This document shows, piece after piece, positions 20,779 through 34,547 of a stretch of 64,000 bases of DNA. A model generated the notes under the pieces. That model searched no databases. It was not told where the DNA came from and saw only the letters and a program-made list of their open reading frames with translations. The stretch's first letter is position 1. Every line of letters begins with the position of its first letter. A program made the translations under genes and the position numbers. The stretch covers positions 13,033 to 77,032 of the IMG/VR virus record IMGVR_UViG_3300046804_003463; one strand, written 5' to 3'. The stretch is from a virus.

Positions 20779-22269
20779 TTATGTTTTCTGCATATCGCTA
20801 GACAATTCGGGGTCTTTTTGAAACTTGTCCGATGCCTCTTCTTGTTCTTGCTTTTTTCCTTTTGCAGCATCTCTTACGATTTGTGCTTTACGGGATAGAG
20901 TTCTTGCTGCTGCACTTGGCTCGTCAACGGCTTCACTTACAGTCTTCCAGCCACCCCCCTTTGACTTGTACCACTTTGATGCCCAACCGTTGGCATATGC
21001 AGAAGGATACACATCAAACTTTTGTTTTGCTAGTGCTTTTGCTTTAGACCACAATGCAGGATTGGTCGGAGCATTCTTCTCTTCAAGATACTCAATCTCT
21101 TCGTTGACATGACCATACTTCTTTTTGTACCAATCAGGCATGCCATTCTTTTTTCTCCAATGTCTTACAGTCGCAGAATCATTTGCTTGGTCACGATACT
21201 TGTTTTCTGCTGTTGTGTTATGACTCTTCATTGCTTCTGCTGCTTCATGTGCATCTTTGGCAATGTGAACTAACGCTTCATTAGATTTCTTATGATACTC
21301 ATGACCTTCTAGTGGATGACGCTGTGATGGACGGCCTTCTGTCAGTTCAACTTCTTCTTTGTTGTATTTCTTTTTCAAATACTTGTCAACCTTGCGTTCA
21401 TATTCACCTTTTGGTTTCTTTGCAACAGGAGTACCATGTGGAGAAGGAACATATCGCTTAACTTCTTCTTTCATACCCTTAGGCTTGATACCTTTTTTCT
21501 TCATGTTGATAGCAATTGCTGCCTGTTGTGCAGGATTTGCTGCTTCGCTCAATTCACCACGCAGATAGTTTGCCGCTGTAGAAATATAATCTTCAGCCAA
21601 TGTAATCTTTGATTGTACCCATTCAGGAAGATTTGTGTTATCATCCATCATGTCAATCAAATCTTGTGCATTGAACATTAACGAACGAAGTTGTGACATT
21701 GCCATATCGCCTTCGTAATCGTATTCACGTGGGTCTTTTGCTTCTTTCATATGTTCCTCGTTTACTCTAGGTGATGCTTGAGTGAAAGATTGAAATGGTT
21801 TTTTTGAAGGTCCAGAAACATGTCTGCCTTTTTTGAACAATTCATATGAAATTCTTCCAGTTTGAATTTGTTCATTCACTTCTGTCTCTTCAGAAACTCT
21901 TGATGCTTTCATGATACCACGAATCAATGGTGCTTTGAGTTGTTTATGTCTTGGCACAGAAATGTTTTCTTTTGACTTAGGATGGCCGTATACATCATGA
22001 CCACCAGAAGTTCTCTTCAGTGACCAACCAGATTTTTTCAGATGAGCATGTACATCACGTGTCTTCATGCTTGACTCTGGCATCTCATCAAGTTGTTCAA
22101 CTGATTCAACTTTATATTTCTTTTTGATTTCGGCCTGCTTTGCAAGTCTTTCTCTGTCATCAGAAATGCTGTAAGAATGACCTAGTTCTTTGTAATAGTC
22201 GGGATGTGGTAGTCCCGACTTCTTACGCAGAGCCATTTGTCGTTGATGTAGTTTATCGGCGACTGACAT
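20779..22269 (-). CDS. Modular internal-head-type polyprotein with a HicA-like domain
   Basis: Modules separated by (L/V)xE acidic linkers; aa ~63-124 are HicA-like. Confidence 0.7.
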   Translation of the reverse strand: MSVADKLHQRQMALRKKSGLPHPDYYKELGHSYSISDDRERLAKQAEIKKKYKVESVEQLDEMPESSMKTRDVHAHLKKSGWSLKRTSGGHDVYGHPKSKENISVPRHKQLKAPLIRGIMKASRVSEETEVNEQIQTGRISYELFKKGRHVSGPSKKPFQSFTQASPRVNEEHMKEAKDPREYDYEGDMAMSQLRSLMFNAQDLIDMMDDNTNLPEWVQSKITLAEDYISTAANYLRGELSEAANPAQQAAIAINMKKKGIKPKGMKEEVKRYVPSPHGTPVAKKPKGEYERKVDKYLKKKYNKEEVELTEGRPSQRHPLEGHEYHKKSNEALVHIAKDAHEAAEAMKSHNTTAENKYRDQANDSATVRHWRKKNGMPDWYKKKYGHVNEEIEYLEEKNAPTNPALWSKAKALAKQKFDVYPSAYANGWASKWYKSKGGGWKTVSEAVDEPSAAARTLSRKAQIVRDAAKGKKQEQEEASDKFQKDPELSSDMQKT

Positions 22270-22271
22270 GA

Positions 22272-23294
22272 CTAGTCTTTCTTAGCCATTTTGGTTGCGG
22301 TGGCATACATTACCGACTTTGCACGTTCACCGTAACGCTGTTTGAAACCAGAAAGTTTTTTCTTCATACCCATTACATAATCTTCTTTCTTCTTTGCTTC
22401 ACCTTTTGTCAGTTCACGCTCATCAATTTGCTCAACTGATTCTGGCATTGTCTTTACACCGACAGTTTTACCAGCAGCAATTTTTGGTTGTTTCTTCTTA
22501 GCTTCAAAACTTGCTTTTTGGTCTTCATATTCTTTTGTCCACTCGTCATTTGTTGGCTCTTCAACGATGGTTTCAACAAAGCCATTTACCTTGTCGGCAT
22601 CAAGCACTTCAATTTTTGTACCGTCAATGTCCATCTCTTCAGTTTCAATTGGTGCTAGAACTTTCAGACCATGCTCATTGTACAGTTCAAGCATTTCTGT
22701 AAATGATGCTGACTCATTGACACGTGTTGAACGCTTGTAGTTTTGACGGGCACCATAACCACCTTTTTTCTTTGGTGTATCATCTTCATCATCGTCATCT
22801 TTGTAGTCACGCTTATGTACAAGACCTGTTGCTGTCTTTGTGACTGAACCTGTTGCTGTCTTACCAGCATCCATGCGCTTCTTAGCATCTGCTACAGTTG
22901 GAAATGCTTCGTTCAGTTGCTCTTGTTCTGATGCTTCAACTTCTTCATTCTTTTTACCATAGTAATCATCTTTGTACATGCGTGATGTTGCCTTACGCAG
23001 ACCTTTTGTGCGGTTTTTTGTCTTGTCTGCAATTGCTTTGCTTACATATGAACCAAGTGCTTTTCTACCTGCTGGTGTATCACCAACTTCGTCTAATTGT
23101 TCAACTTCTTCTTTCTTCAGCACACCACGACCAACCAACACATCTTTGTGTGTAATCTTATCTTTTGGATGTGCTAGTGCTGCCAAAGATTTCTCTTTGT
23201 CGGTTTTTGGTGTTGAACCATGACTTGTTTCTGCCATGATTTTTGCTGCTGCTTCTGCGACACCTTTCAGTGCCTTGTCATGAAAAATTGACAT
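22272..23294 (-). CDS. Modular internal-head-type protein
   Basis: Charged modules with EQLDE, QLNE, RVNE and QIDE linkers. Confidence 0.65.
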   Translation of the reverse strand: MSIFHDKALKGVAEAAAKIMAETSHGSTPKTDKEKSLAALAHPKDKITHKDVLVGRGVLKKEEVEQLDEVGDTPAGRKALGSYVSKAIADKTKNRTKGLRKATSRMYKDDYYGKKNEEVEASEQEQLNEAFPTVADAKKRMDAGKTATGSVTKTATGLVHKRDYKDDDDEDDTPKKKGGYGARQNYKRSTRVNESASFTEMLELYNEHGLKVLAPIETEEMDIDGTKIEVLDADKVNGFVETIVEEPTNDEWTKEYEDQKASFEAKKKQPKIAAGKTVGVKTMPESVEQIDERELTKGEAKKKEDYVMGMKKKLSGFKQRYGERAKSVMYATATKMAKKD

Positions 23295-23318: not shown

Positions 23319-24629
23319 TTATCTTGTAATCTCTTCCCAATCCATTGATGCATAGATGTCTGAACCGTTTAGGGTAGCAGAAGCACATAATGTTAATTCG
23401 TATGGAGTGTTGGTGAAACTGTCTCTTTCTAATTGAAATTTGAATAATGCTTCTTTAAGAATATCAACTGGTGCTGCACTAATTGTTGCACCAGTAAAAC
23501 CTGATGCTAATACACGACCGCCAGTCATTGTACCGCCATCAATTTTGTATTCAACAGAAGAATTATCTCCCGCACTTACCCAAGTTCCACCTCCAGTGGT
23601 GTTGGCGCCTGCTCTTACTTGCCAATTATAAACTGAGTTATTCGTAATACCCAATATTGATAGTGCAGTAAGAATTACGATTGCATCTAAACGATTTGCT
23701 TTTAATCTTAGTGAAATAACTGGATAATATGTTCCAGGCGTTGGTAAATCAATAGGTGATCCAATTGCTGTTTGAATGGCTTGTTGAGAGCCATACAATT
23801 CATACCCACCTTCAGAAATGACTGTCGAACATATTTGCTTCATTGTTGAGTTACTTGCGGTAACTCCAGTATTCTTGATTTCATATCTTAATGGCAAAGA
23901 GGCCGTTGTCATGTAAGGTGTTAAATTTTTATTATCATTATGAAATATATGTGCGATTGTCATTTTACCATCAACAACAAAACCACAACGAACATCACCA
24001 ACACCTAACCATTCAACGTCCATCCAAAGAATGTTTGTTTTACTTACGTCAAGTCCACCAGTGTGTTCTGCACCACCACTTTGTGATGAATAACCCGTAC
24101 CGTCAAACTTATCTACATTCCAATCTGATTGTGCAACTCTTGTTTCTGTAACTGTGCTTGATGTGTTTGTTCTCAATACGAAATAATTTGTTGTACCATC
24201 ATTCTCAAGATAAATGCCATTACTTTGACCAAAATATCCTACTCTTTGACGAACATTTGCTTTTGGTTCGTTCATAGCAAATGTTGACATAATCAACAAA
24301 GATTTACCTGGTTGATAAGACATAACTTTTGTCGTTTCTCTGGCAACTTCAGCATTTGCGGTTGTGCCAACAGTCATATTAATTGTACTTTGGTTTTCAA
24401 CAAAAGTGTATGAACTATTACTTGCTGTGTTTGATGTTACCCACAGTCCATTATCAGAAAAACGATGTGTGCTTTCAAACAAAGTAACAGGATTTACGAT
24501 ACGCAAACGGCCAAACGCATCTGTCAAAGTGCCAGACGGTGAAAGACGATCAGACATCATATTCACTTCATAACGAGTGAATACTTGTCCTGAATCTATC
24601 TTATGTAAGTCCGTTCTAAATTGTGCCAT
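23319..24629 (-). CDS. Putative virion structural protein
   Basis: DAFGRLR motif; beta-rich 436 aa. Confidence 0.6.
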   Translation of the reverse strand: MAQFRTDLHKIDSGQVFTRYEVNMMSDRLSPSGTLTDAFGRLRIVNPVTLFESTHRFSDNGLWVTSNTASNSSYTFVENQSTINMTVGTTANAEVARETTKVMSYQPGKSLLIMSTFAMNEPKANVRQRVGYFGQSNGIYLENDGTTNYFVLRTNTSSTVTETRVAQSDWNVDKFDGTGYSSQSGGAEHTGGLDVSKTNILWMDVEWLGVGDVRCGFVVDGKMTIAHIFHNDNKNLTPYMTTASLPLRYEIKNTGVTASNSTMKQICSTVISEGGYELYGSQQAIQTAIGSPIDLPTPGTYYPVISLRLKANRLDAIVILTALSILGITNNSVYNWQVRAGANTTGGGTWVSAGDNSSVEYKIDGGTMTGGRVLASGFTGATISAAPVDILKEALFKFQLERDSFTNTPYELTLCASATLNGSDIYASMDWEEITR

Positions 24630-24631
24630 AA

Positions 24632-24894
24632 ATTAGCAGTTCCACTTTCTTATTTTGGCTTTAACTCCGGATATTTTTTATGCATTTCTTCCCTTGATAG
24701 TTCATGCATATCTTTCCACATTTTTGCTTCTTTTTTAGTTTTTGTGGTTCTAATATGACGGCCATTTTCATCATGCACATTATATTCAACATCGGCTGTT
24801 GTTCTGCCACGATAACTTTCTTTCTTAGTTATTGTTGCTTTCTTTTCTTCAACTATGAAAGACTTAAATGTTTTCATTAGCAATTCCACTTTCT
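24632..24894. repeat. 19-bp direct repeat (1 mismatch) flanking a small gene
   Basis: attagcagttccactttct (24632-24650) and attagcaattccactttct (24876-24894). Confidence 0.85.
24650..24877 (-). CDS. Small protein with capsid-targeting-like N-terminus (MKTFKSFIVEE)
   Basis: N-terminus resembles the T4 IP CTS MKTYQEFIAE. Confidence 0.7.
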   Translation of the reverse strand: MKTFKSFIVEEKKATITKKESYRGRTTADVEYNVHDENGRHIRTTKTKKEAKMWKDMHELSREEMHKKYPELKPK

Positions 24895-25593
24895 CAGTGC
24901 TTTATTAATACGTGAATCTGGATCACGTGCTGTCTTTGCTGATGTCAGTCTACGCTTCATGCCGCCCATTCTTGCACAGAATGATTTGCGACGATTTGCT
25001 GCTTTAGAACCAGGTTTCAGTTTGCTTGGCTTTGTTGTCACAGCCATTGACAGTTTTGAACCTGGATTCTCACGACGATATGATTCAATACCTTTACGAT
25101 TCAAACCACCAGACTCAGACTTACCTTCTTTACGCTGCCATGCTGCAACTTCTTCTAACTGTTCTAATTGTTCATCTGTCAGCGGACCATCGTCTGCTTC
25201 ATAGTTCTCTTTTTTCACTTTCATCATCTTTGGCTTTGTGAACACAGGATTATCCGCACCACCAGCATCACCTTCTCTCTCCTCTACAAATTTTTTCAGC
25301 TTTTTATAATAATCTGATTTTTCACCGATATGCTTCAATGCAATTTTTCTAGCAACATGTTTTTCATCAGTATGTTCCATTTCAACTTTAGTGCCATGTG
25401 CTACCAAATCTTGAATATCTGAAATAGACATTTTATATTTTTTTGCTAAATCATCTTCAGAAGGAACTGATTTATCAAGTTCAACTTCTTCTTTTACACA
25501 TGAGCCTGGTGAATATGGTTTTTTACCAGGTACTGGTCTATGACCTGGCCAACAACGACCAGCTTCATCTAAGAATGCGCTAAACGATTTCAT
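24877..25593 (-). CDS. Modular internal-head-type protein (CTS-like MKSFSAFLDE; DUF5661-like and DUF6321-like modules)
   Basis: GTKVEMEH...DYY module and AWQRKEGK...SFCARM...WNC module, separated by LEE/ELD linkers; DUF names from memory. Confidence 0.7.
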   Translation of the reverse strand: MKSFSAFLDEAGRCWPGHRPVPGKKPYSPGSCVKEEVELDKSVPSEDDLAKKYKMSISDIQDLVAHGTKVEMEHTDEKHVARKIALKHIGEKSDYYKKLKKFVEEREGDAGGADNPVFTKPKMMKVKKENYEADDGPLTDEQLEQLEEVAAWQRKEGKSESGGLNRKGIESYRRENPGSKLSMAVTTKPSKLKPGSKAANRRKSFCARMGGMKRRLTSAKTARDPDSRINKALRKWNC

Positions 25594-28115
25594 ATGTAAT
25601 TTCTCTTTTTAAATGTTGTAAGTGAGATACCTTTTTTCTTCAGTTCGTCTTCTTTTTGATCACCAATTGATGCTGTAGTCGTGTCGCCTGTAAGTTCATT
25701 GATATTTTTAGGCACAACTTGTGTTGCTTTACCTTTTTTGCTTAATTTTTCACCCATGTCTCTAGCAGGAGATTCACCAGCACCCGCCATTGAAATGCCT
25801 GGCTCTATACCTTTGTCTATTGACTCTTGAATTTTTTTCTGCCAATTTTCTTTGATGGTTGAGATGGTGATGGTTCTTCTATCTTCACTTCTTCCTTCGG
25901 CAACGGGCTTGTCAAGGGCTGGTCGTTCTTTTCTTCCAACACTGGCTCTAACTTTTCCAAGTTCTTTGGCTGTTGGGGTGAAACTATTTTGTCCATAAAC
26001 TGCTTCAATCGCAGAATTATCAGGTGAATGTACTTCATACAAATCCTCTTTTAGTTTTACAACATATCTCTTGCCTACTTTTGCTACTGTGCCACCTTTT
26101 TGGTGTGCTTCTTTTGCTGCTGAACCACGAATAAAAAACAATCGTGTCTTGCCATTCTTGTCTGTCAATAGTTTTTGTTTCTTCGTTTCTTCACTAATCT
26201 TGCCTTTGCCAAAATTTGATACATTGATTGGATCACCTTTACGTTCTGGGTTAGGATCGTGTTTTCTTTTTGCACGAACAGCAGCAGCACGTTCTTTCTT
26301 TGACAACGCTGCACGTTTTTCATTTGACATGCATTTTGGTTTTGGTTCACCTGGCTCTCTTGCACAAGGACCAATTGCTTCACCCTTACTATTGATGCGT
26401 TTCCAACCACCTTCGGGATCAGTTTTGCTGAACCATTTACGCAGGTCTTCTTTAATCATGCCTCTTCCTAGTGTAAGTAGATTAAATGCACCAGGATCAG
26501 ACATCGTATTCACTTCCTCTTCTTCTACCATGTCTTCTTCATCTGACTTGAGCAAACGAAGTGTGCGTGTGACTTCTTCTACAGTATCTCCTGTTACTGA
26601 TACTGTGACTGCTTCATTCATCTTAGCCATTTTGCTTTGATGTGTTTCAACAGTCTTTGCAATCTTTTCTACTGGCACTAGACTACCATGCACTGAACGA
26701 TGTGTGACTTTACCATCTTTACCATAACGACCAAAGCCATAATACTCAAGACCCATTGTGTTCATATCATCATGTGTGCCGGCATCTTTATGTGGTTTCG
26801 TGTCGGTACGAATTGGTGCTGTATCTTTTTTACCTAACTCTGTAGCAATCCAACCTTTTGCTGAATCATTCTTTGGTGGTTTACCAACAAACTTTTGTAT
26901 GTTCTTGAAAATGCCGTCTAGTTCTTTTGTCTTTGCTTCTACAACTTCTGGTGGTGCAGAACGCAAATCTTCTGAGTTATCAAACTCAACATAATTGTCA
27001 CGGAATAGTTTACCAAACATTGGTCGTGCCGCTTGTACAGAATCCCATTTTTCTTTACGAATGTCTTCTGGTACTGTACGACCACCACGTTGACCACGTT
27101 CAATATTTCTCTCTTTTGATACTTCGTCGGCTGTGTTGACCATAATCATGGATGTTTCATATCCTAACTTCTCAAGCATGTCTTTGATTTTGGCATACTT
27201 TTCTGGGTCATCACCTGTACCATTGATGATAAGACCATTACGACCATGAAGTGCAAGACGTTGACGCAACTCTGTAACATTCTTTGCACGTTTGCGAACT
27301 GCATTTCTTTGCGCTTCTTCATTGTCTGGCATTTTCTTATCAAGACCTTCTTTGTCCATCAGATACTCAAGTGCTTTGTCTGAATTGATTTCAGTCAGAC
27401 CATGACCATCAAGTGTCTTACTCAACACATAATCTTTACCTGAGCCAGGACCACCACCAAGAAACACTGCTTTGAAAATACCTTTGTCGTGAACACCTTC
27501 ACGAATGATTTCTTCGTGCAATCTCATACCTTTACGTACATCATTGAACATTTGTTTGACATGTGCATGAGACATTGATGATGGTGCGCCCTTCTTGAAT
27601 GAATCAAGGTCACCACTCTTTGCATGTTCACGCATCTTTGAAGCAGAAATGCCAGTTACACCTTCAGCATCAGGATCACGTTCACCCGCTGAGTGTACTT
27701 TGATTGATTTGAAATTGAAACGGGCACCTTCATGTGTGCCATTATACTTGTGAAGCAATCTGTGATATTCTTCTGTACGATCAGAGCCACCAACCATGTG
27801 TAGATGAGTTACACCTTTCTTATGCAATGCTTCTGCATGGTCAAAGAATGTTGGCTTGTCTTTAGATGCTGCTGTGAAGTTCGTGCCAGGAAATGCACGT
27901 TTAGCATGTTTGACTTTTTGATCTGCTGTAAGGGGATTTTTCTTAGAGTCCTGTGAATGTGACAAGACGATGTGATGAGAACCGCCGACAGAATCGGCAA
28001 TATCTTTGACTTTGTTGACTAGTTTTTCGTGACCGTTTGTGATAGGATTCATGCGACCAAATGCTAGGACGGCATGTTTCTCTTTCTGTTCACGTAGAAA
28101 ATCTCTAAATTTCAT
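25590..28115 (-). CDS. Modular protein: CTS-like N-terminus, HIGH-superfamily nucleotidyltransferase, P-loop kinase (zeta/AAA_33-like), further modules
   Basis: MKFRDFLRE; FGRMNPITNGH, VGGSDR, ISASKMR; GGPGSGK; DLRKWF...KPKC module. Confidence 0.8.
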   Translation of the reverse strand: MKFRDFLREQKEKHAVLAFGRMNPITNGHEKLVNKVKDIADSVGGSHHIVLSHSQDSKKNPLTADQKVKHAKRAFPGTNFTAASKDKPTFFDHAEALHKKGVTHLHMVGGSDRTEEYHRLLHKYNGTHEGARFNFKSIKVHSAGERDPDAEGVTGISASKMREHAKSGDLDSFKKGAPSSMSHAHVKQMFNDVRKGMRLHEEIIREGVHDKGIFKAVFLGGGPGSGKDYVLSKTLDGHGLTEINSDKALEYLMDKEGLDKKMPDNEEAQRNAVRKRAKNVTELRQRLALHGRNGLIINGTGDDPEKYAKIKDMLEKLGYETSMIMVNTADEVSKERNIERGQRGGRTVPEDIRKEKWDSVQAARPMFGKLFRDNYVEFDNSEDLRSAPPEVVEAKTKELDGIFKNIQKFVGKPPKNDSAKGWIATELGKKDTAPIRTDTKPHKDAGTHDDMNTMGLEYYGFGRYGKDGKVTHRSVHGSLVPVEKIAKTVETHQSKMAKMNEAVTVSVTGDTVEEVTRTLRLLKSDEEDMVEEEEVNTMSDPGAFNLLTLGRGMIKEDLRKWFSKTDPEGGWKRINSKGEAIGPCAREPGEPKPKCMSNEKRAALSKKERAAAVRAKRKHDPNPERKGDPINVSNFGKGKISEETKKQKLLTDKNGKTRLFFIRGSAAKEAHQKGGTVAKVGKRYVVKLKEDLYEVHSPDNSAIEAVYGQNSFTPTAKELGKVRASVGRKERPALDKPVAEGRSEDRRTITISTIKENWQKKIQESIDKGIEPGISMAGAGESPARDMGEKLSKKGKATQVVPKNINELTGDTTTASIGDQKEDELKKKGISLTTFKKRNYI

Positions 28116-28146: not shown

Positions 28147-28161
28147 TATTTAGTATTTAGT
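28147..28161 (-). promoter_or_regulatory. Tandem T4-late-type promoter candidates (ACTAAATA x2)
   Basis: Directly upstream of the CTS-bearing gene run. Confidence 0.55.
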
Positions 28162-28864
28162 AGATTTCCGTTGCTCCTGTGCTGGCCATGACACCTTGAC
28201 AGTGTATTTTATCTAGTTCCACAAGACGGTCAGGTTCAATGTTGAAGAAATGTGCATGTTCTGTGTCAACACCGGCATCTTGAACTACACCAATGTTTCT
28301 TCTACAGACGATAGAGTAATCATCAATAAGACTTGGGCAAAATGAGAATAAACGAGTAATCAACAAATCAGTAAATGTTTCTGCAACTTCACCTCTCATC
28401 CAAGTTGGCATTCTTTTCTTAAACACATACCTACCAAAGTGGTCATGCTCTGCTATGTCAAATTCATCATGAAGTATGGTTCTTGCAGAAAACTTGTACA
28501 CTCTACGAACAGAATGCATCAGACGTTTCATCTCAGGTGCTTGTTTCAGAAGCATCATCATTTTTAGCATCAACACATTTTCTGCTTCACTTTTGCGGGC
28601 AACAGCAGCAAACTGTGCTATGTCTTTATCACCAGAAAAGTCAGCAATCAAATCAACAAGACCACTCATGCTGTCATACTTTTCTTTTTCTACTGCCTCT
28701 GGTGAACCATCTGCTAAAATAACAATCGCATCAGGACATTTCTTTCTGAGTGATACAAGACCTTCAATCGTTTGTTGTAATCTATCTTCACGACTGAGTA
28801 CACCCATGTTTGGATTAAGAGCAGATGTTACAATGAATAGCTGAAGTGAAGGAATCAATGACAT
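28157..28864 (-). CDS. Putative glycosyltransferase-like (GT-A) protein
   Basis: VTSA...RLQQT...ILADGS...KFSAR pattern; last gene of the sugar/cyclitol cluster. Confidence 0.5.
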   Translation of the reverse strand: MSLIPSLQLFIVTSALNPNMGVLSREDRLQQTIEGLVSLRKKCPDAIVILADGSPEAVEKEKYDSMSGLVDLIADFSGDKDIAQFAAVARKSEAENVLMLKMMMLLKQAPEMKRLMHSVRRVYKFSARTILHDEFDIAEHDHFGRYVFKKRMPTWMRGEVAETFTDLLITRLFSFCPSLIDDYSIVCRRNIGVVQDAGVDTEHAHFFNIEPDRLVELDKIHCQGVMASTGATEIY

Positions 28865-29529
28865 TCGTACTCCGAAAATAATTTAATTGTTTTATATGTC
28901 GCTTTTGATTTCAATACATGAAGAATCGTGTCAGTAATTTCTTTTGTATCTAACAACTTGTCTTTATTCGGATGACCATCTTGCATCGGTGTATTAATGC
29001 CACCAGGATGAATACTTGTCACACGAATTTCATCCATTTGTGTATAAATCTCTTTACCAAGAACATCAGCAAAAGCAGTAATAGCGTGTTTAGACGCTGA
29101 ATAAACTGCTTCCCATTCCAGTGGCATAAGACCTGATACAGAATTGATGAAGAAAATATCACTATGTTTATTCATCCACTTGTATGCTTCTTTTGTTACA
29201 TACATCGTGCCTTTGACATTCAAATCAATGATTCTGTCTATTGACTCAAATGAAAAATCATCTCTGAATAAACCCCATTGATATACGCCAGCATTGTTTA
29301 CAAGAACATCAATGTGTGTACCAATTCTTTTGAATGCTTCTTCAACTTGTTTTGATTTCGTGATGTCACATTCTATCCATTGAAATGTGTCGGGAAAGGC
29401 AAAAAGGTTGATAGATGGCTTTGTGCGTGAAAGACCATATACAAAGTAACCTTCATCAATCAGTCTGTCTGCTATATCATAACCAAGACCATAACTACAA
29501 CCTGTCACCACAGCCACTTTACGCATCAT
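28855..29529 (-). CDS. Short-chain dehydrogenase/reductase
   Basis: TGCSYGLG, NNAG, YSASK and PGG motifs. Confidence 0.92.
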   Translation of the reverse strand: MMRKVAVVTGCSYGLGYDIADRLIDEGYFVYGLSRTKPSINLFAFPDTFQWIECDITKSKQVEEAFKRIGTHIDVLVNNAGVYQWGLFRDDFSFESIDRIIDLNVKGTMYVTKEAYKWMNKHSDIFFINSVSGLMPLEWEAVYSASKHAITAFADVLGKEIYTQMDEIRVTSIHPGGINTPMQDGHPNKDKLLDTKEITDTILHVLKSKATYKTIKLFSEYECH

Positions 29530-30662
29530 ATCTCCTCAAAAACATCAATCGCTAATTTCATTTCATCTTCTGTAATGTCATTTACAATCTTATAGTTGCC
29601 AATAGCAATAGGTAATGGCGCATACTGATTACCATTACGATGCTTTGTTGCATCACGTAGGCTCTCTAACAATAACTTCATGTTGGTAAAGTCTTTGTGA
29701 AATGTTTTGAGTTTTAGTCTCTTTGCGACACCAAATATTCGTTTGAGTTGAACAGTATCAATGTAGCCACGAATGAATGAAATACATGAACTGTATAAAC
29801 AATCCAATGCTACTGCTTCACCATGTAGCAATTCAGGTATATTAGTCATTTCAATGACAGGACTGAATGTGTGTCCAAAATCTACACACCGATCTAATCG
29901 TTTTTCCCACAGATTAGGTCCAAGTTCTGCAATCATGTCTGTGATAGCAAGATTGATGACACGAACTGGTACGGCACCATACTGAAACTTTTCATCAATC
30001 AGTATTTCTGCATTCTCTTCTAGTAGATGAAAGAGTTCTGGTGATTTGATGACAGCAAGTTTGAATATCTCTGCAATGCCATTGATGATTTCTCGTTCAC
30101 TCTGTGTACGAATAAATTTCTTGTCAATGTATGTCGCAAGTGGTGGGTAGTACGCACCAATACGATTGCGTCTGCCTAGATGATTGACACCAACTTTAGA
30201 ACCTACAGAAGCGTCAACGATGGCAAGAAGTGTTGTGGGAATTTTAACGTATGGAATTCCACGGCGGTATATGCTACAAGCAAAGCCAACAATATCCAGC
30301 AGAACACCTCCGCCAATAGCGATAATCGGTTCACGGCGTAACACTCCATTCTGTTCAAAAAAGTCTAAGATACGATCTACATTCTTCCAGTTTTTATTTT
30401 CTTCTTTGCAGTCTACACAAAGTATTTTGCAACTCAACTTGACCGCACCAAAGTATGTTGCAATGTTATCTTTGTACAAATCATGTACTTCAGAATCAAT
30501 AACAATGATTCTGCGATCACTATTCGTAATGTTTACAATGTCTTGATTACTTGGGCTGAAGATGTCAGCAGAGTATGTAAGTTTGAATTCTACTGGTAGT
30601 TCTGTTTTGACTGACCAAGTTCGTTTGAACTTGTCATAATCCATCATAAAGTCTAAACTCAT
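29526..30662 (-). CDS. Sedoheptulose-7-phosphate cyclase, 2-epi-5-epi-valiolone synthase (EEVS)-like
   Basis: DHQS fold (GGGVLLD, PTTLLAIVDASVG) with MIAELGPNLWE..LDRCVDFGHTFSP and KHRNG, unlike AroB (LNxGHTxGH). Confidence 0.85.
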   Translation of the reverse strand: MSLDFMMDYDKFKRTWSVKTELPVEFKLTYSADIFSPSNQDIVNITNSDRRIIVIDSEVHDLYKDNIATYFGAVKLSCKILCVDCKEENKNWKNVDRILDFFEQNGVLRREPIIAIGGGVLLDIVGFACSIYRRGIPYVKIPTTLLAIVDASVGSKVGVNHLGRRNRIGAYYPPLATYIDKKFIRTQSEREIINGIAEIFKLAVIKSPELFHLLEENAEILIDEKFQYGAVPVRVINLAITDMIAELGPNLWEKRLDRCVDFGHTFSPVIEMTNIPELLHGEAVALDCLYSSCISFIRGYIDTVQLKRIFGVAKRLKLKTFHKDFTNMKLLLESLRDATKHRNGNQYAPLPIAIGNYKIVNDITEDEMKLAIDVFEEI

Positions 30663-31612
30663 TTCATCGCCTTACTAAACAATTTACATGCATGAACATA
30701 AAAATATTTTGCTTTGTCAATATCACCTGCCAGCAATTTGAAGGGCAGCATACGAATGAACTGTGATGCTTCAAGTATATCTATGAGTTTCATTTTATCT
30801 TCTGGTAACTCAGAGATGAAGTGTTTGTTGAATGTATCAAAGTTATTCGTGTCATCGTTTGGATTAGATAAATTAATTCCTTTCACATGAACATTGTGGT
30901 CATTGATAAGACCATAATAACTGCGTGAACACTGAAGCACTTGTGCGTAGTCAAGGTATTTGGTATTCCACATACTCTCTTCATACACATCAATGAAAAC
31001 TACACGGTCTTCTTCAAATGAGTACATGATATTCTCAAGTGTTGGATTACCATGTATATTACACTCATCATCGTTCTTTAATTCGGAAAAGTATTCTTTC
31101 AGAACATGAAGATAACCACCCACACCTGTAACAACTTCACCATTGAAATGATATGTGCCATAATAAAAGAAATCTTCAAACTCTTTTATCTTGATAGCAT
31201 CTTCAATTTTCTGTTGTATTTCTTCAATAAAATAAAGTTTTGGTGCGCCAGCAATAGGTTCTTTTCTGATTGAGTGAAGTGTATTCAGTCCTTTCCAGAC
31301 TGCTTGACTTATTTTGAAGATTTGTTCTTCACTTAGTATGTCTTTGCTAAGAATGCTTTTGATGTCATGAAAGCCCTCTAGATATTCTAAATCAAACCAT
31401 GCTTCAACGCTAGTAGAATCAACATTTACAACTTTGGGAAATAGATTAGGATATAGTGTATTGTATTGCTGTAGTTTCATTAACTGAGAATACCAACGCA
31501 TGAAACCATATTCACGATTTCCTACACGTGAAATTTCCTTGCGTACAATTTTCTCATCTGGTAACCAATAAGTTCTACTTAATGAGCCACCCTTCAATGA
31601 TATAGTTTTCAT
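30659..31612 (-). CDS. Aminoglycoside-phosphotransferase/choline-kinase-like protein
   Basis: LKGGSLS loop, HGNPTLENI (HGD-like) and FID motifs. Confidence 0.7.
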   Translation of the reverse strand: MKTISLKGGSLSRTYWLPDEKIVRKEISRVGNREYGFMRWYSQLMKLQQYNTLYPNLFPKVVNVDSTSVEAWFDLEYLEGFHDIKSILSKDILSEEQIFKISQAVWKGLNTLHSIRKEPIAGAPKLYFIEEIQQKIEDAIKIKEFEDFFYYGTYHFNGEVVTGVGGYLHVLKEYFSELKNDDECNIHGNPTLENIMYSFEEDRVVFIDVYEESMWNTKYLDYAQVLQCSRSYYGLINDHNVHVKGINLSNPNDDTNNFDTFNKHFISELPEDKMKLIDILEASQFIRMLPFKLLAGDIDKAKYFYVHACKLFSKAMK

Positions 31613-32340
31613 TTTGCACCTAGTGTTTGCCTTGCTATCTCAATGCCGTATTCTTGTGGACTACCTAGCACAATTGTCTCTTGACTACCACCAAGAGGAT
31701 TCATGAATACTTGTTTATTGGATTGTATCATACTTTGTATCACATCTGCAATATACAATTCACCATCTTTTTCGGCTAACTTGTTGTAATATTCTAAGTA
31801 AAGGTGTCCAGTTAGAAAACCATAGAAGCCTGATGACGCATACGGTGAGATTTGTTTCTTTTCTACGATTTCAATTACCGTGTTTTCATATGCACGAACA
31901 TAAGAATACTTTGGTGAATTACCCACGAACACATCAATGTACGCATCATGCTTTGCGGTCAAGTCATCAGCAATAAAATCTATACGACGACCTTTGATGA
32001 TCGTATCTGCGTTATGTACAAATGTTGGTAAATGTTTGTTGTTTAGTTGTTCAATACCAATTGCCGCTGTGTGTGCTTGACCTTTTGTATCACCAATATA
32101 CAAAATATTGCTGTCGTTCCAACCTAGTGGCTTGATTGCTTCAACAAGTTGTTCTTTGAAATAGATGTCTCTTTTGTTGGCGACAAGAATAAGTTGATTG
32201 ACCCAACCAATGTTTTTCAAAATGTCATATATGATTGTCTTATCATTCCAAGGCAAAAGATATTTTGGTATGTCAAAGCCGACATCATGAAAACGGGTGT
32301 TATAACCCGCCATACAGATTATCAGATTCATTTCAGCCAT
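31609..32340 (-). CDS. Sugar-phosphate nucleotidyltransferase-like protein
   Basis: ICMAGYNTRF...PKYLL, TKGQAHT, NAD, EKK, GELYI and LGSP motifs. Confidence 0.82.
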   Translation of the reverse strand: MAEMNLIICMAGYNTRFHDVGFDIPKYLLPWNDKTIIYDILKNIGWVNQLILVANKRDIYFKEQLVEAIKPLGWNDSNILYIGDTKGQAHTAAIGIEQLNNKHLPTFVHNADTIIKGRRIDFIADDLTAKHDAYIDVFVGNSPKYSYVRAYENTVIEIVEKKQISPYASSGFYGFLTGHLYLEYYNKLAEKDGELYIADVIQSMIQSNKQVFMNPLGGSQETIVLGSPQEYGIEIARQTLGAK

Positions 32341-33041
32341 TCTTCCATATCATTTCGTAGCAGTGAATGCCATGTGCTGTTGTACTCACCTGGTGAAAAC
32401 GGATGATTGACATCACAATACACAAGATTCTCACCAACAAGATTGTTTCTCTTCCAGTTGGCACTCATAAAATCTTCCATCATGTATTGTACACCAGAAT
32501 TGTAGAACTCATCAATGTGATTGTAAGCATCAGCATACTTGTCCATGTTTTCGGATGATGAGAACGCAAACTGATCGTTGCCAAAGTCACGTTCTGGTGT
32601 CATGCGACAGTTTGGTATATACAACTTACTGTTGTCTAGTTCTTCAAATGGTATGCGAACATTAATAGCAAAGTCAAATCGTGAACGAATGACCCAATCA
32701 AACTTTGTTTCAAAGTATTTTTCATACTCATACTTTGTTTTCATACACTCTCTGATTGCATACAACTGAGCATATGTTGACATGCGACCATCTTTAACTT
32801 TCCAGTTTGGTGATGGTGGTGGAGTATTCGTGTACTTTGACAAATCAACTGTGGGATTTGGTGATGTCTTAAAGCTGTATGCATTGTATGTTGAAGAAAT
32901 CTTTTGCATTTGTTCAGCAGGCATTTCCCAAGAATGCAGAAATACAGTAACATCATTACCTTTGATGATGTTCTCGTAATGATATGCATAGCCTTTTTCC
33001 CACATTCTTGGTTGGCCAGAAATACATAGTGCTATTCTCAT
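32328..33041 (-). CDS. Putative glycosyltransferase-like protein
   Basis: MRIALCISGQPR...FLHSW...DWVIRSRFD...NDQFA pattern recalled from phage sugar loci. Confidence 0.6.
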   Translation of the reverse strand: MRIALCISGQPRMWEKGYAYHYENIIKGNDVTVFLHSWEMPAEQMQKISSTYNAYSFKTSPNPTVDLSKYTNTPPPSPNWKVKDGRMSTYAQLYAIRECMKTKYEYEKYFETKFDWVIRSRFDFAINVRIPFEELDNSKLYIPNCRMTPERDFGNDQFAFSSSENMDKYADAYNHIDEFYNSGVQYMMEDFMSANWKRNNLVGENLVYCDVNHPFSPGEYNSTWHSLLRNDMEEWLK

Positions 33042-33718
33042 AGTTCTCTTCCTACATTTGCTTTGTTGTCTGTGATGCCAAATGGCTTTAGTTGTTCCTT
33101 TTCCATCACAACCATACTATTGTAAAATGAAACAGAATACAGATTGTGATATACATCTAATGCTTCTTGTGAAATTGGTGAACCTTGAAAGTGTTGCTGA
33201 TTGACAATATCAGTTGCTCGTTTACAATGTTCTGTGAATGTACCAGCACCACGAAACACACCACCCCATGGCTGTGGCCAATAACTTGTGTGAGTGTCTT
33301 CACAAATGTAAACACCACCTTCTTTGATATGTGGAAAAACTTTATTGAGTGTGGTGATTTGATGATTCATTACATGTGAACCATCGTCAATTACAATGTC
33401 AAACTTGTCTTGTGTTTTGAGAAATTCATCCCAAAACTCTGGATCACTTTGGTCACCCATCACAATATTGACATCACCATCATACTCATACTTCAAACAT
33501 TCTTCATTGATGTCAATAGCAACAACTGATGTATCAGAACCAAAGTATTTCAACCACATCTCAATTGAGCCACCACCCAACACACCAATTTCAAGTATGC
33601 GTGGTGCTTTGTGAGTAAATTTACTCAGATGTCTTTCATATACATCAAAATAACCTGACCATTTGGTAGAACCTTTTTCAAGTTCCCAAAATAATTCTTT
33701 GATTCTATTTGTCGTCAT
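33038..33718 (-). CDS. Class I SAM-dependent methyltransferase
   Basis: LEIGVLGGGS, GDQS, DIVIDDGSH and GGVYICED motifs. Confidence 0.88.
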   Translation of the reverse strand: MTTNRIKELFWELEKGSTKWSGYFDVYERHLSKFTHKAPRILEIGVLGGGSIEMWLKYFGSDTSVVAIDINEECLKYEYDGDVNIVMGDQSDPEFWDEFLKTQDKFDIVIDDGSHVMNHQITTLNKVFPHIKEGGVYICEDTHTSYWPQPWGGVFRGAGTFTEHCKRATDIVNQQHFQGSPISQEALDVYHNLYSVSFYNSMVVMEKEQLKPFGITDNKANVGREL

Positions 33719-34547
33719 ATTTCGCCTCAATCACTTTACGCCATTCTGGCACACGATCATACTGATGTACAATAGTATACTCTATTCCTGTTGAAGTTAC
33801 AACCTTGTCACCTTCTAGTTTCGGTGATGGTTCTAATAGATGTGGTCTAAACTGTTCAATCTTACTTGGATCAGCAGTTGTACCTAATTGACATGCCCAA
33901 CCTTCTTCTGATTTCATGTACATTGATGTTTTCACATATGGATGTCTAGAAACCATCACATTGAATACCGCTTGATCAACAATTGGTATTGGGCGATTGA
34001 TACAGTTCAAAAATAATTGCAATGTTAAATCTCTCATTGCATGTCCACGGCCGGCAAGAACACCTACATTGAAAATTGTATTGTTCTTGAAATCATCATA
34101 GATGCCTTGACCATAACATTGTGTAATATTTTCACGACCCCATGGCTCATCTTTATATTTCATACTTTCAGAAGAAAACACTAAGTCTTCTTGTGCAGAA
34201 AGATTCTCTTCTAACCATGTAACAGGATTTTTTTGAAAGATAACATCTCGTACATCAGTGGTAATCACATAACGATAGTCGTTGCTTTTGAGCAGTTTGT
34301 AAATATGAACAAATCGTTCAACATGCACCATCAGTTGTGATTGATAAGTTAGATTACCTTCACCGTCTTGATTGAATGCAATGATTGAGAAACCTGCTTC
34401 AGTTACCTTTTTTACGGTATCTTTGTCGCAGTTCATGAGAATCAGAACTTTGTCACCCTCAAAGCCTGATTGATTGATTGAATTAATCCAATACTTTAGT
34501 TTTGCCCAATCATAATTTGTTGAGCAACCCACGATCAAATCCTTCAT
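33705..34547 (-). CDS. Putative glycosyltransferase (GT-A, DxD)
   Basis: TDVRDVIFQ, NVGV, DQAVFN and HQYDR motifs. Confidence 0.75.
   Translation of the reverse strand: MKDLIVGCSTNYDWAKLKYWINSINQSGFEGDKVLILMNCDKDTVKKVTEAGFSIIAFNQDGEGNLTYQSQLMVHVERFVHIYKLLKSNDYRYVITTDVRDVIFQKNPVTWLEENLSAQEDLVFSSESMKYKDEPWGRENITQCYGQGIYDDFKNNTIFNVGVLAGRGHAMRDLTLQLFLNCINRPIPIVDQAVFNVMVSRHPYVKTSMYMKSEEGWACQLGTTADPSKIEQFRPHLLEPSPKLEGDKVVTSTGIEYTIVHQYDRVPEWRKVIEAKYDDK

Follow-up and report, generated by a model that had tools for sequence, protein, structure and literature searches.

Introduction

The closest described systems to the locus reported here are the internal proteins of bacteriophage T4, the processed head proteins of giant phages, the HicA toxins and the polyvalent proteins. 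IPII and IPIII of T4 carry the leader MKTYQEFIAE, which by itself suffices for packaging, and the T4 prohead protease gp21 cleaves after Glu in the motif L/I-X-E (PMC9026906). In the T4 leader, an exchange of Glu for Asp at position 10 blocks the cut (PMC9026906). In the giant phages phiKZ and SPN3US, many head proteins are cut after Glu by a diverged homologue of gp21 (PMC9026906). HicA toxins are mono-domain proteins of 50-100 aa that are paired with HicB (PMC11594946). Polyvalent proteins, as described by Iyer et al. (2017), are multi-domain proteins predicted to enter the host with the DNA for conflict (PMC5512222); neither HicA nor cyanophages come up in the main text of their paper.

Here we analyse a gene of an uncultured T4-like aquatic phage coding for a 496-aa protein in which a HicA domain is embedded between acidic linkers. 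A preliminary description of this DNA had offered two roles for the domain, either a toxin held latent in a polyprotein, to be released at head maturation and injected, or a decoy for host HicB. The reading favoured here, to which we assign a probability of roughly 0.55, is that the HicA module is head cargo, which would be excised by the prohead protease and injected. No description of such an arrangement was found in the literature on HicA in cyanophages, marine myoviruses and polyvalent proteins.

Results

Source record and genome setting

The window, that is, the whole stretch of 64,000 nt that was analysed, is part of a 77-kb IMG/VR record with a CheckV completeness of 45%. Its gene set is that of the replication region of a T4-like myovirus, with nearly every gene on the minus strand, and includes DNA polymerase gp43, helicase gp41, UvsX, the clamp loader and gp46/47, along with ribonucleotide reductase, primase, PstS and endolysin. 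Cyanomyoviruses are the nearest isolates, one structural protein being ~57% identical. No isolated phage was matched when 20 kb of the window was searched by megablast, and in protein searches the cyanomyoviruses were matched by single modules only, HicA not being among those modules. NCBIfam has no model for the 496-aa protein or its neighbours. A cyanophage origin was considered and is unlikely; since a psbA-type gene is absent from five related records, two of them complete, the host of this phage lineage, judged from gene content, is probably not a cyanobacterium.

The features of the locus are collected in Table 1.

Table 1. Features of the HicA-bearing gene and of the run in which it lies, in window coordinates
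Feature	Position	Strand	Remarks
Tandem late-promoter-like motif TACTAAATACTAAATA	28147..28162	(-)	38-45 nt upstream of the 841-aa gene
841-aa protein, leader MKFRDFLRE	25590..28115	(-)	First gene of the run
238-aa protein, leader MKSFSAFLDE	24877..25593	(-)	DUF5661 + DUF6321
75-aa Lys-rich ORF, leader MKTFKSFIVE	24650..24877	(-)	
436-aa acidic protein, homologue of a cyanomyovirus 'virion structural protein'	23319..24629	(-)	phrog_1645, E 1.7e-128
340-aa modular basic protein	22272..23294	(-)	Two EQ(L/I)DE linkers
496-aa modular protein with HicA module, predicted late	20779..22269	(-)	Basic, pI 9.4
N-terminal module, aa 1-54	22108..22269	(-)	Kept in orthologues; unlike the T4 capsid-targeting sequence
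Linker 1, ESVEQLDE, aa 55-62	22084..22107	(-)	Predicted cut after Glu62 (L-D-E)
HicA domain module, aa 63-127	21889..22083	(-)	Pfam, PHROG and fold matches
G89-G90-H91, HicA catalytic Gly/His motif	21997..22005	(-)	Alignment with 4c26; invariance in the family
Linker 2, VSEETEVNE, aa 125-133	21871..21897	(-)	Two predicted cuts: V-S-E, V-N-E
Linker 3, EEVELTE, aa 305-311	21337..21357	(-)	Site of module insertion in relatives
Linker 4, EEIEYLEE, aa 390-397	21079..21102	(-)	Site of module insertion in relatives

Identity, fold and catalytic residues of the HicA domain

The preliminary description had recognised a HicA-like domain at window 21898-22083 (-), which translates to residues 63-124 of the 496-aa ORF, and had named an HMM search against HicA_toxin and structure prediction as checks; both bear the assignment out. 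The Pfam model HicA_toxin (PF07927) matches aa 71-122 with an E value of 9.5e-10 and 38.9 bits, above its curated cut-off of 27 bits, and PHROG 353 'toxin' matches the domain with an E value of 6.5e-12. In a phmmer search against the PDB, designed coiled coils ranked top, which is a composition artefact; HicA chains came next.

As the AlphaFold model of the full-length protein is too poor for use (pLDDT 49), the HicA domain was folded separately, from aa 56-135 with an alignment of 51 sequences as input. The resulting model has a mean pLDDT of 79.7, with 86-93 in the core and low confidence in both linkers, and its elements follow the order helix, three strands, helix, which is that of the dsRBD-like HicA fold. 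The top seven Foldseek matches of this model in the PDB are all HicA toxins (6g26, 4c26, 4p78, 1whz, 5yrz, 6hpb), with a target TM of 0.66-0.85 and best rmsd values of 1.0-1.8 A.

In the alignment with 4c26, the HicA chain of B. pseudomallei, the His of the GGH motif (aa 89-91) falls on the position of the H24A substitution, and Gly22 and His24 of that toxin are the residues required for toxicity (PMC11594946). G89, G90 and H91 do not vary within the family in an alignment of 20 homologues, and the catalytic His is retained in at least 90% of the sequences across alignment A2. On the sequence matches and the predicted fold, residues 63-127 are a genuine HicA domain with its catalytic residues intact. 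The fragment predicted to be set free would be of ~7.3 kDa, with a pI of 10.6.

The absence of a recognisable hicB, also noted in the preliminary description for the window, extends beyond it: the HicB families PF15919 and PF05534 have no match across the 77-kb contig (45% complete), nor in two relatives whose genomes, of 172 and 162 kb, are complete and bear terminal repeats. The only HicB-like match in these complete relatives, in G001, was rejected as noise, having 15 bits and three stop codons. An inhibitor unrelated to HicB may be encoded.

Modular architecture of the 496-aa protein

More than 5500 metagenome homologues of the whole 496-aa protein were found, and PF07927 is present in 120/120 among the matches listed; JGI automatic annotation already labels these homologues as HicA-like. 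HicA is the only Pfam family found on the 496-aa protein. In the alignment of 20 homologues, the protein appears as beads on a string, with conserved blocks separated by acidic linkers that read EEVEQLDE before HicA and SEETEIDE after it, then KEEVELxE and EEVEYLEE. Residues E58, L60, D61 and E62 of linker 1 are invariant, and the additional modules of relatives are inserted precisely at the acidic linkers. The flanking motifs reported earlier for the HicA domain lie, as reported, in linkers 1 and 2.

The HicA module is not tied to one position or one gene. Among 47 IMG/VR loci, its start varies between residues 47 and 311, in proteins of 194-825 aa, and the remaining modules are reordered. 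When homologues are clustered at 50% identity, 199 clusters are found, about two-thirds of which are represented by long proteins with the domain at varied positions, and the domain is embedded in ~100 protein clusters. In L030, the HicA module is present in the orthologue of the leader-bearing 238-aa gene and missing from the orthologue of the 496-aa gene. Two stretches of each of the proteins P0079, P0123 and P0129 match the HicA query, so that a polyprotein may hold two HicA modules.

A T4-like N-terminal capsid-targeting leader is not found on the 496-aa protein. Its C-terminal tail, PELSS-x-I/M-x-K (window 20782-20840 (-)), is kept in several relatives (L006, L028, L031, L035, L044) despite their differing module content and may be a second targeting or docking signal. 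Both ends of T4 Alt are propeptides (PMC9026906), and it is by this analogy that we speculate that the conserved N-terminal module and C-terminal tail might take the place of the leader.

Linker joints as predicted cut sites

A hydrophobic-x-Glu motif stands just upstream of 94 of the 96 internal HicA domains among the 50%-identity cluster representatives. At the exact junction, positions P3-P1 are hydrophobic-x-Glu in all 77 embedded HicA domains of the representatives, which come from related sequences and hence are not 77 independent events. P3 at these junctions is L in 55, I in 15, V in 5 and M in 2, and P1 is Glu in every one (77/77), while the background of hydrophobic-x-Glu is 2.7% per position and linker positions P9 to P4 are variable. 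On the C-terminal side, V-x-E is found 37-38 residues past the catalytic His in 68/106 domains. Certain stand-alone relatives start precisely where the predicted product starts, with M-x-G-A-N/S. The linker codons vary at synonymous sites, and so the constraint, as read from the sequences, is on the protein.

A protease of the Peptidase_S77 (gp21) type is encoded in both complete relatives, one instance being L054:9587-10237, with E values of 1e-35 to 1e-36, and also in a third record. No gp21 gene is present in the contig of the window, which is 45% complete and misses the head module altogether. The joints that bound the HicA module are of the L/I-X-E type and look like cut sites for gp21.

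The gene run and its leaders

The HicA-bearing gene lies in a run whose products have, in order, 841, 238, 75, 436, 340, 496 (HicA), 192 and 130 aa, followed by endolysin and primase. The run is located in the replication region, outside the head module, and is syntenic in eight relatives. Because the stop of the preceding 340-aa gene is only 2 nt before the start of the HicA gene, the two are probably co-transcribed. Further upstream in the run, the 436-aa protein shares 57% identity with a protein of S-RIM8 that carries the annotation virion structural. Immediately upstream of the whole lies a stretch of genes for sugar modification (window 28157-34547 (-)), among them those for a FabG-like reductase, a methyltransferase and a glycosyltransferase.

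The leader of the 75-aa ORF (20% Lys) agrees with that of T4 IPII and IPIII at 6/10 positions, position 4 being aromatic (F/Y). Among the relatives, L012 and L015 have this ORF and L006, L011 and L019 lack it; by its sequence it looks like a classical small internal protein. The 841-aa protein comprises cytidylyltransferase-like, Zeta-toxin/AAA-type P-loop kinase and small modules; one of these small modules (DLRKWFSKTDP...) is found again in other phages, on proteins that bear HicA. T4-like leaders are also found on other HicA-bearing proteins (L030, L031, L044), as in the 194-aa protein of L030:6656-7240, in which MKTFKELMLE is joined to a CWPGHKPVPGKKPY mini-module, HicA and DUF6321. In the head module of G001, a 222-aa protein (L054:8125-8793) is encoded between the portal and prohead-protease genes; it starts with MKSLLEFKSIVE, so that the lineage has a leader of this type within its head module as well.

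The modular proteins have a basic, Lys-rich composition (pI 8.5-9.7, 12-20% Lys), whereas their structural neighbours are acidic. This composition matches that of the internal proteins of T4, which are basic and DNA-bound.

Late-promoter-like motif

A tandem ACTAAATA motif ahead of the gene run is kept in five relatives, and two more distant relatives have TATAAATA or CATAAATA in its place. The late promoter of cyanomyoviruses is NATAAATA (PMC2984593), from which the promoter-like motif of the run is one base off; the NATAAATA 7-mer is not enriched within the window. The promoter evidence for late transcription of the run is modest.

Stand-alone leader-plus-HicA proteins

Nine clusters of ~80-aa proteins consist of a T4-like leader, for example MLTFKEFIAE, and HicA, and nothing more. 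One of these clusters could be placed genomically, on a T4-like metagenome contig (L058), where a 74-aa protein (L058:10001-10225) combines the leader MLSFKEFIVE with HicA and has CATAAATA 26 nt upstream. Its neighbours are a homing endonuclease, an endolysin and a gp32-type SSB (E 7e-113), and the locus has the layout of a T4 ip gene. Proteins of this kind were not found in isolated phages or in IMG/VR.

Discussion

Proposed role of the HicA module

From these observations we infer packaging, cleavage, injection and RNase activity, in the following sequence. The HicA domain would be one cargo module of a T4-type internal-protein system, and its gene would be transcribed late, within a run that includes the homologue of a virion structural protein. 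Incorporation of the basic, Lys-rich polyprotein into the prohead core would follow, and there a gp21-type prohead protease would cleave the hydrophobic-x-Glu linkers behind their Glu and free a HicA unit of ~65-71 aa. This unit would accompany the packaged DNA, first in the head and then into the next host cell. The injected HicA could then act as a ribosome-independent RNase, making a first strike on host mRNA or defence RNAs. An antitoxin would not be required, because the toxin would be sequestered in proheads, in a cell that is already lost.

Of the two roles offered in the preliminary description, the comparative evidence favours the latent toxin, released at head maturation and injected, as indicated by the joint motif, the gp21-type protease of the complete relatives, the leaders of neighbouring genes and of stand-alone HicA proteins, the late-promoter-like motif and the Lys-rich composition. 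Against head cargo it can be said that the 496-aa protein is without a T4-like leader, that the run lies in the replication region rather than in the head module, that this 45%-complete contig has no gp21 gene, that the junction counts come from related sequences, and that the promoter-like motif is one base off NATAAATA, a 7-mer not enriched in the window. A broader proposal, that T4-like phages from oceans and lakes fill their heads with protease-cut strings of interchangeable effector modules, of which the HicA RNase is one widespread injected module, is advanced tentatively, as something a little short of an even chance.

Alternative explanations

The missing leader and the position in the replication region would be accommodated if the 496-aa protein stayed uncut in the cytoplasm of the infected cell, with HicA degrading host or early phage mRNA late in infection and the linkers serving as flexible spacers. 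T4 RegB is an RNase that degrades early mRNA. The retention of the catalytic residues would also fit an uncut enzyme, and a lytic phage would have no need of the antitoxin. This explanation is nevertheless considered unlikely, as it does not account for the fixed P3 and P1 at every joint beside a variable remainder, for the existence of leader-plus-HicA proteins, or for the movement of the module between genes with its joints kept.

The precise insertion and shuffling of modules at the linkers, together with a ~12-nt core, GAAGAAGTTGAA, common to the linkers, could also be explained if the linkers were mainly junctions for cassette exchange, providing shared sequence for recombination, with no proteolysis and the modules acting together. 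Beyond the core, however, the Leu, Asp and Glu codons of the proposed cut site differ synonymously, and highly divergent linkers still retain hydrophobic-x-Glu directly before the module; both features indicate selection on the protein and make it quite improbable that exchange is the main function of the linkers. Cassette exchange can, for its part, be compatible with the head-cargo reading.

The second role of the preliminary description, a decoy or mimic binding host HicB or another defence component, or else a non-catalytic RNA-binding module, finds some basis in the frequent acquisition of toxin-antitoxin components by phages against defence (review PMC11594946) and in the RNA binding of the dsRBD-like fold, but is very improbable, as the Gly and His required for HicA toxicity are invariant in the family and would be needless in a decoy, and titration of host HicB would release host HicA and harm the phage.

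Comparison with known systems

The head-cargo reading can be compared with the four systems introduced above. With the ejection or inner-body proteins of phiKZ and SPN3US, the 496-aa protein shares short Glu-ending motifs and, through its complete relatives, a gp21-like protease, the cutting being predicted here. The proteins of these giant phages are, however, large, single and propeptide-trimmed rather than strings of small interchangeable modules, and HicA is unreported there.

The likeness to polyvalent proteins lies in the multi-domain make-up, the proposed travel with the DNA into a new host and a role in conflict. The difference is that the hallmark domains and built-in processing peptidase of polyvalent proteins were not found, Pfam matching HicA only, and that processing would here be by a head protease.

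The HicA module shares with the HicA toxins of HicAB systems (PF07927) the sequence family, the helix-three-strands-helix fold and the catalytic Gly and His. Unlike in HicAB systems, it is embedded (aa 63-127 of 496) in a protein from a T4-like phage of lytic type, and neither the contig nor two complete relatives gave a HicB match. HicA is known as a small toxin restrained by HicB, the sole form in a 2024 review; in the present proposal, it would be an offensive, packaged cargo without antitoxin.

The closest parallel is with IPI, IPII, IPIII and Alt of T4. Like these, the 496-aa protein is basic and, by prediction, late; its neighbours carry 10-residue leaders of the MKTYQEFIAE type; L/I-X-E sites for a Peptidase_S77 protease are present, at which cutting is predicted; and the hypervariable cargo would be aimed at the host. 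The system differs from that of T4 in having many unrelated modules per polyprotein, with predicted cut sites between them, in place of one cargo per leader, and in that the HicA-bearing protein has no N-terminal leader, for which the conserved ends may substitute. A HicA RNase is not known as a cargo among the T4 internal proteins. Under the broader proposal, host RNA would meet a pre-formed first strike at the moment of infection, and the modules would form a natural cassette system by which injected cargo evolves. If the head-cargo reading is correct, the locus provides a concrete candidate for how abundant aquatic phages shut off the host at once or counter its defences, and proteins could be loaded into phage heads with the conserved leader and linker as tools. 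The idea of the T4 internal protein, with one cargo to each leader, would then be widened to polyproteins that are cut by a protease and whose modules can be exchanged.
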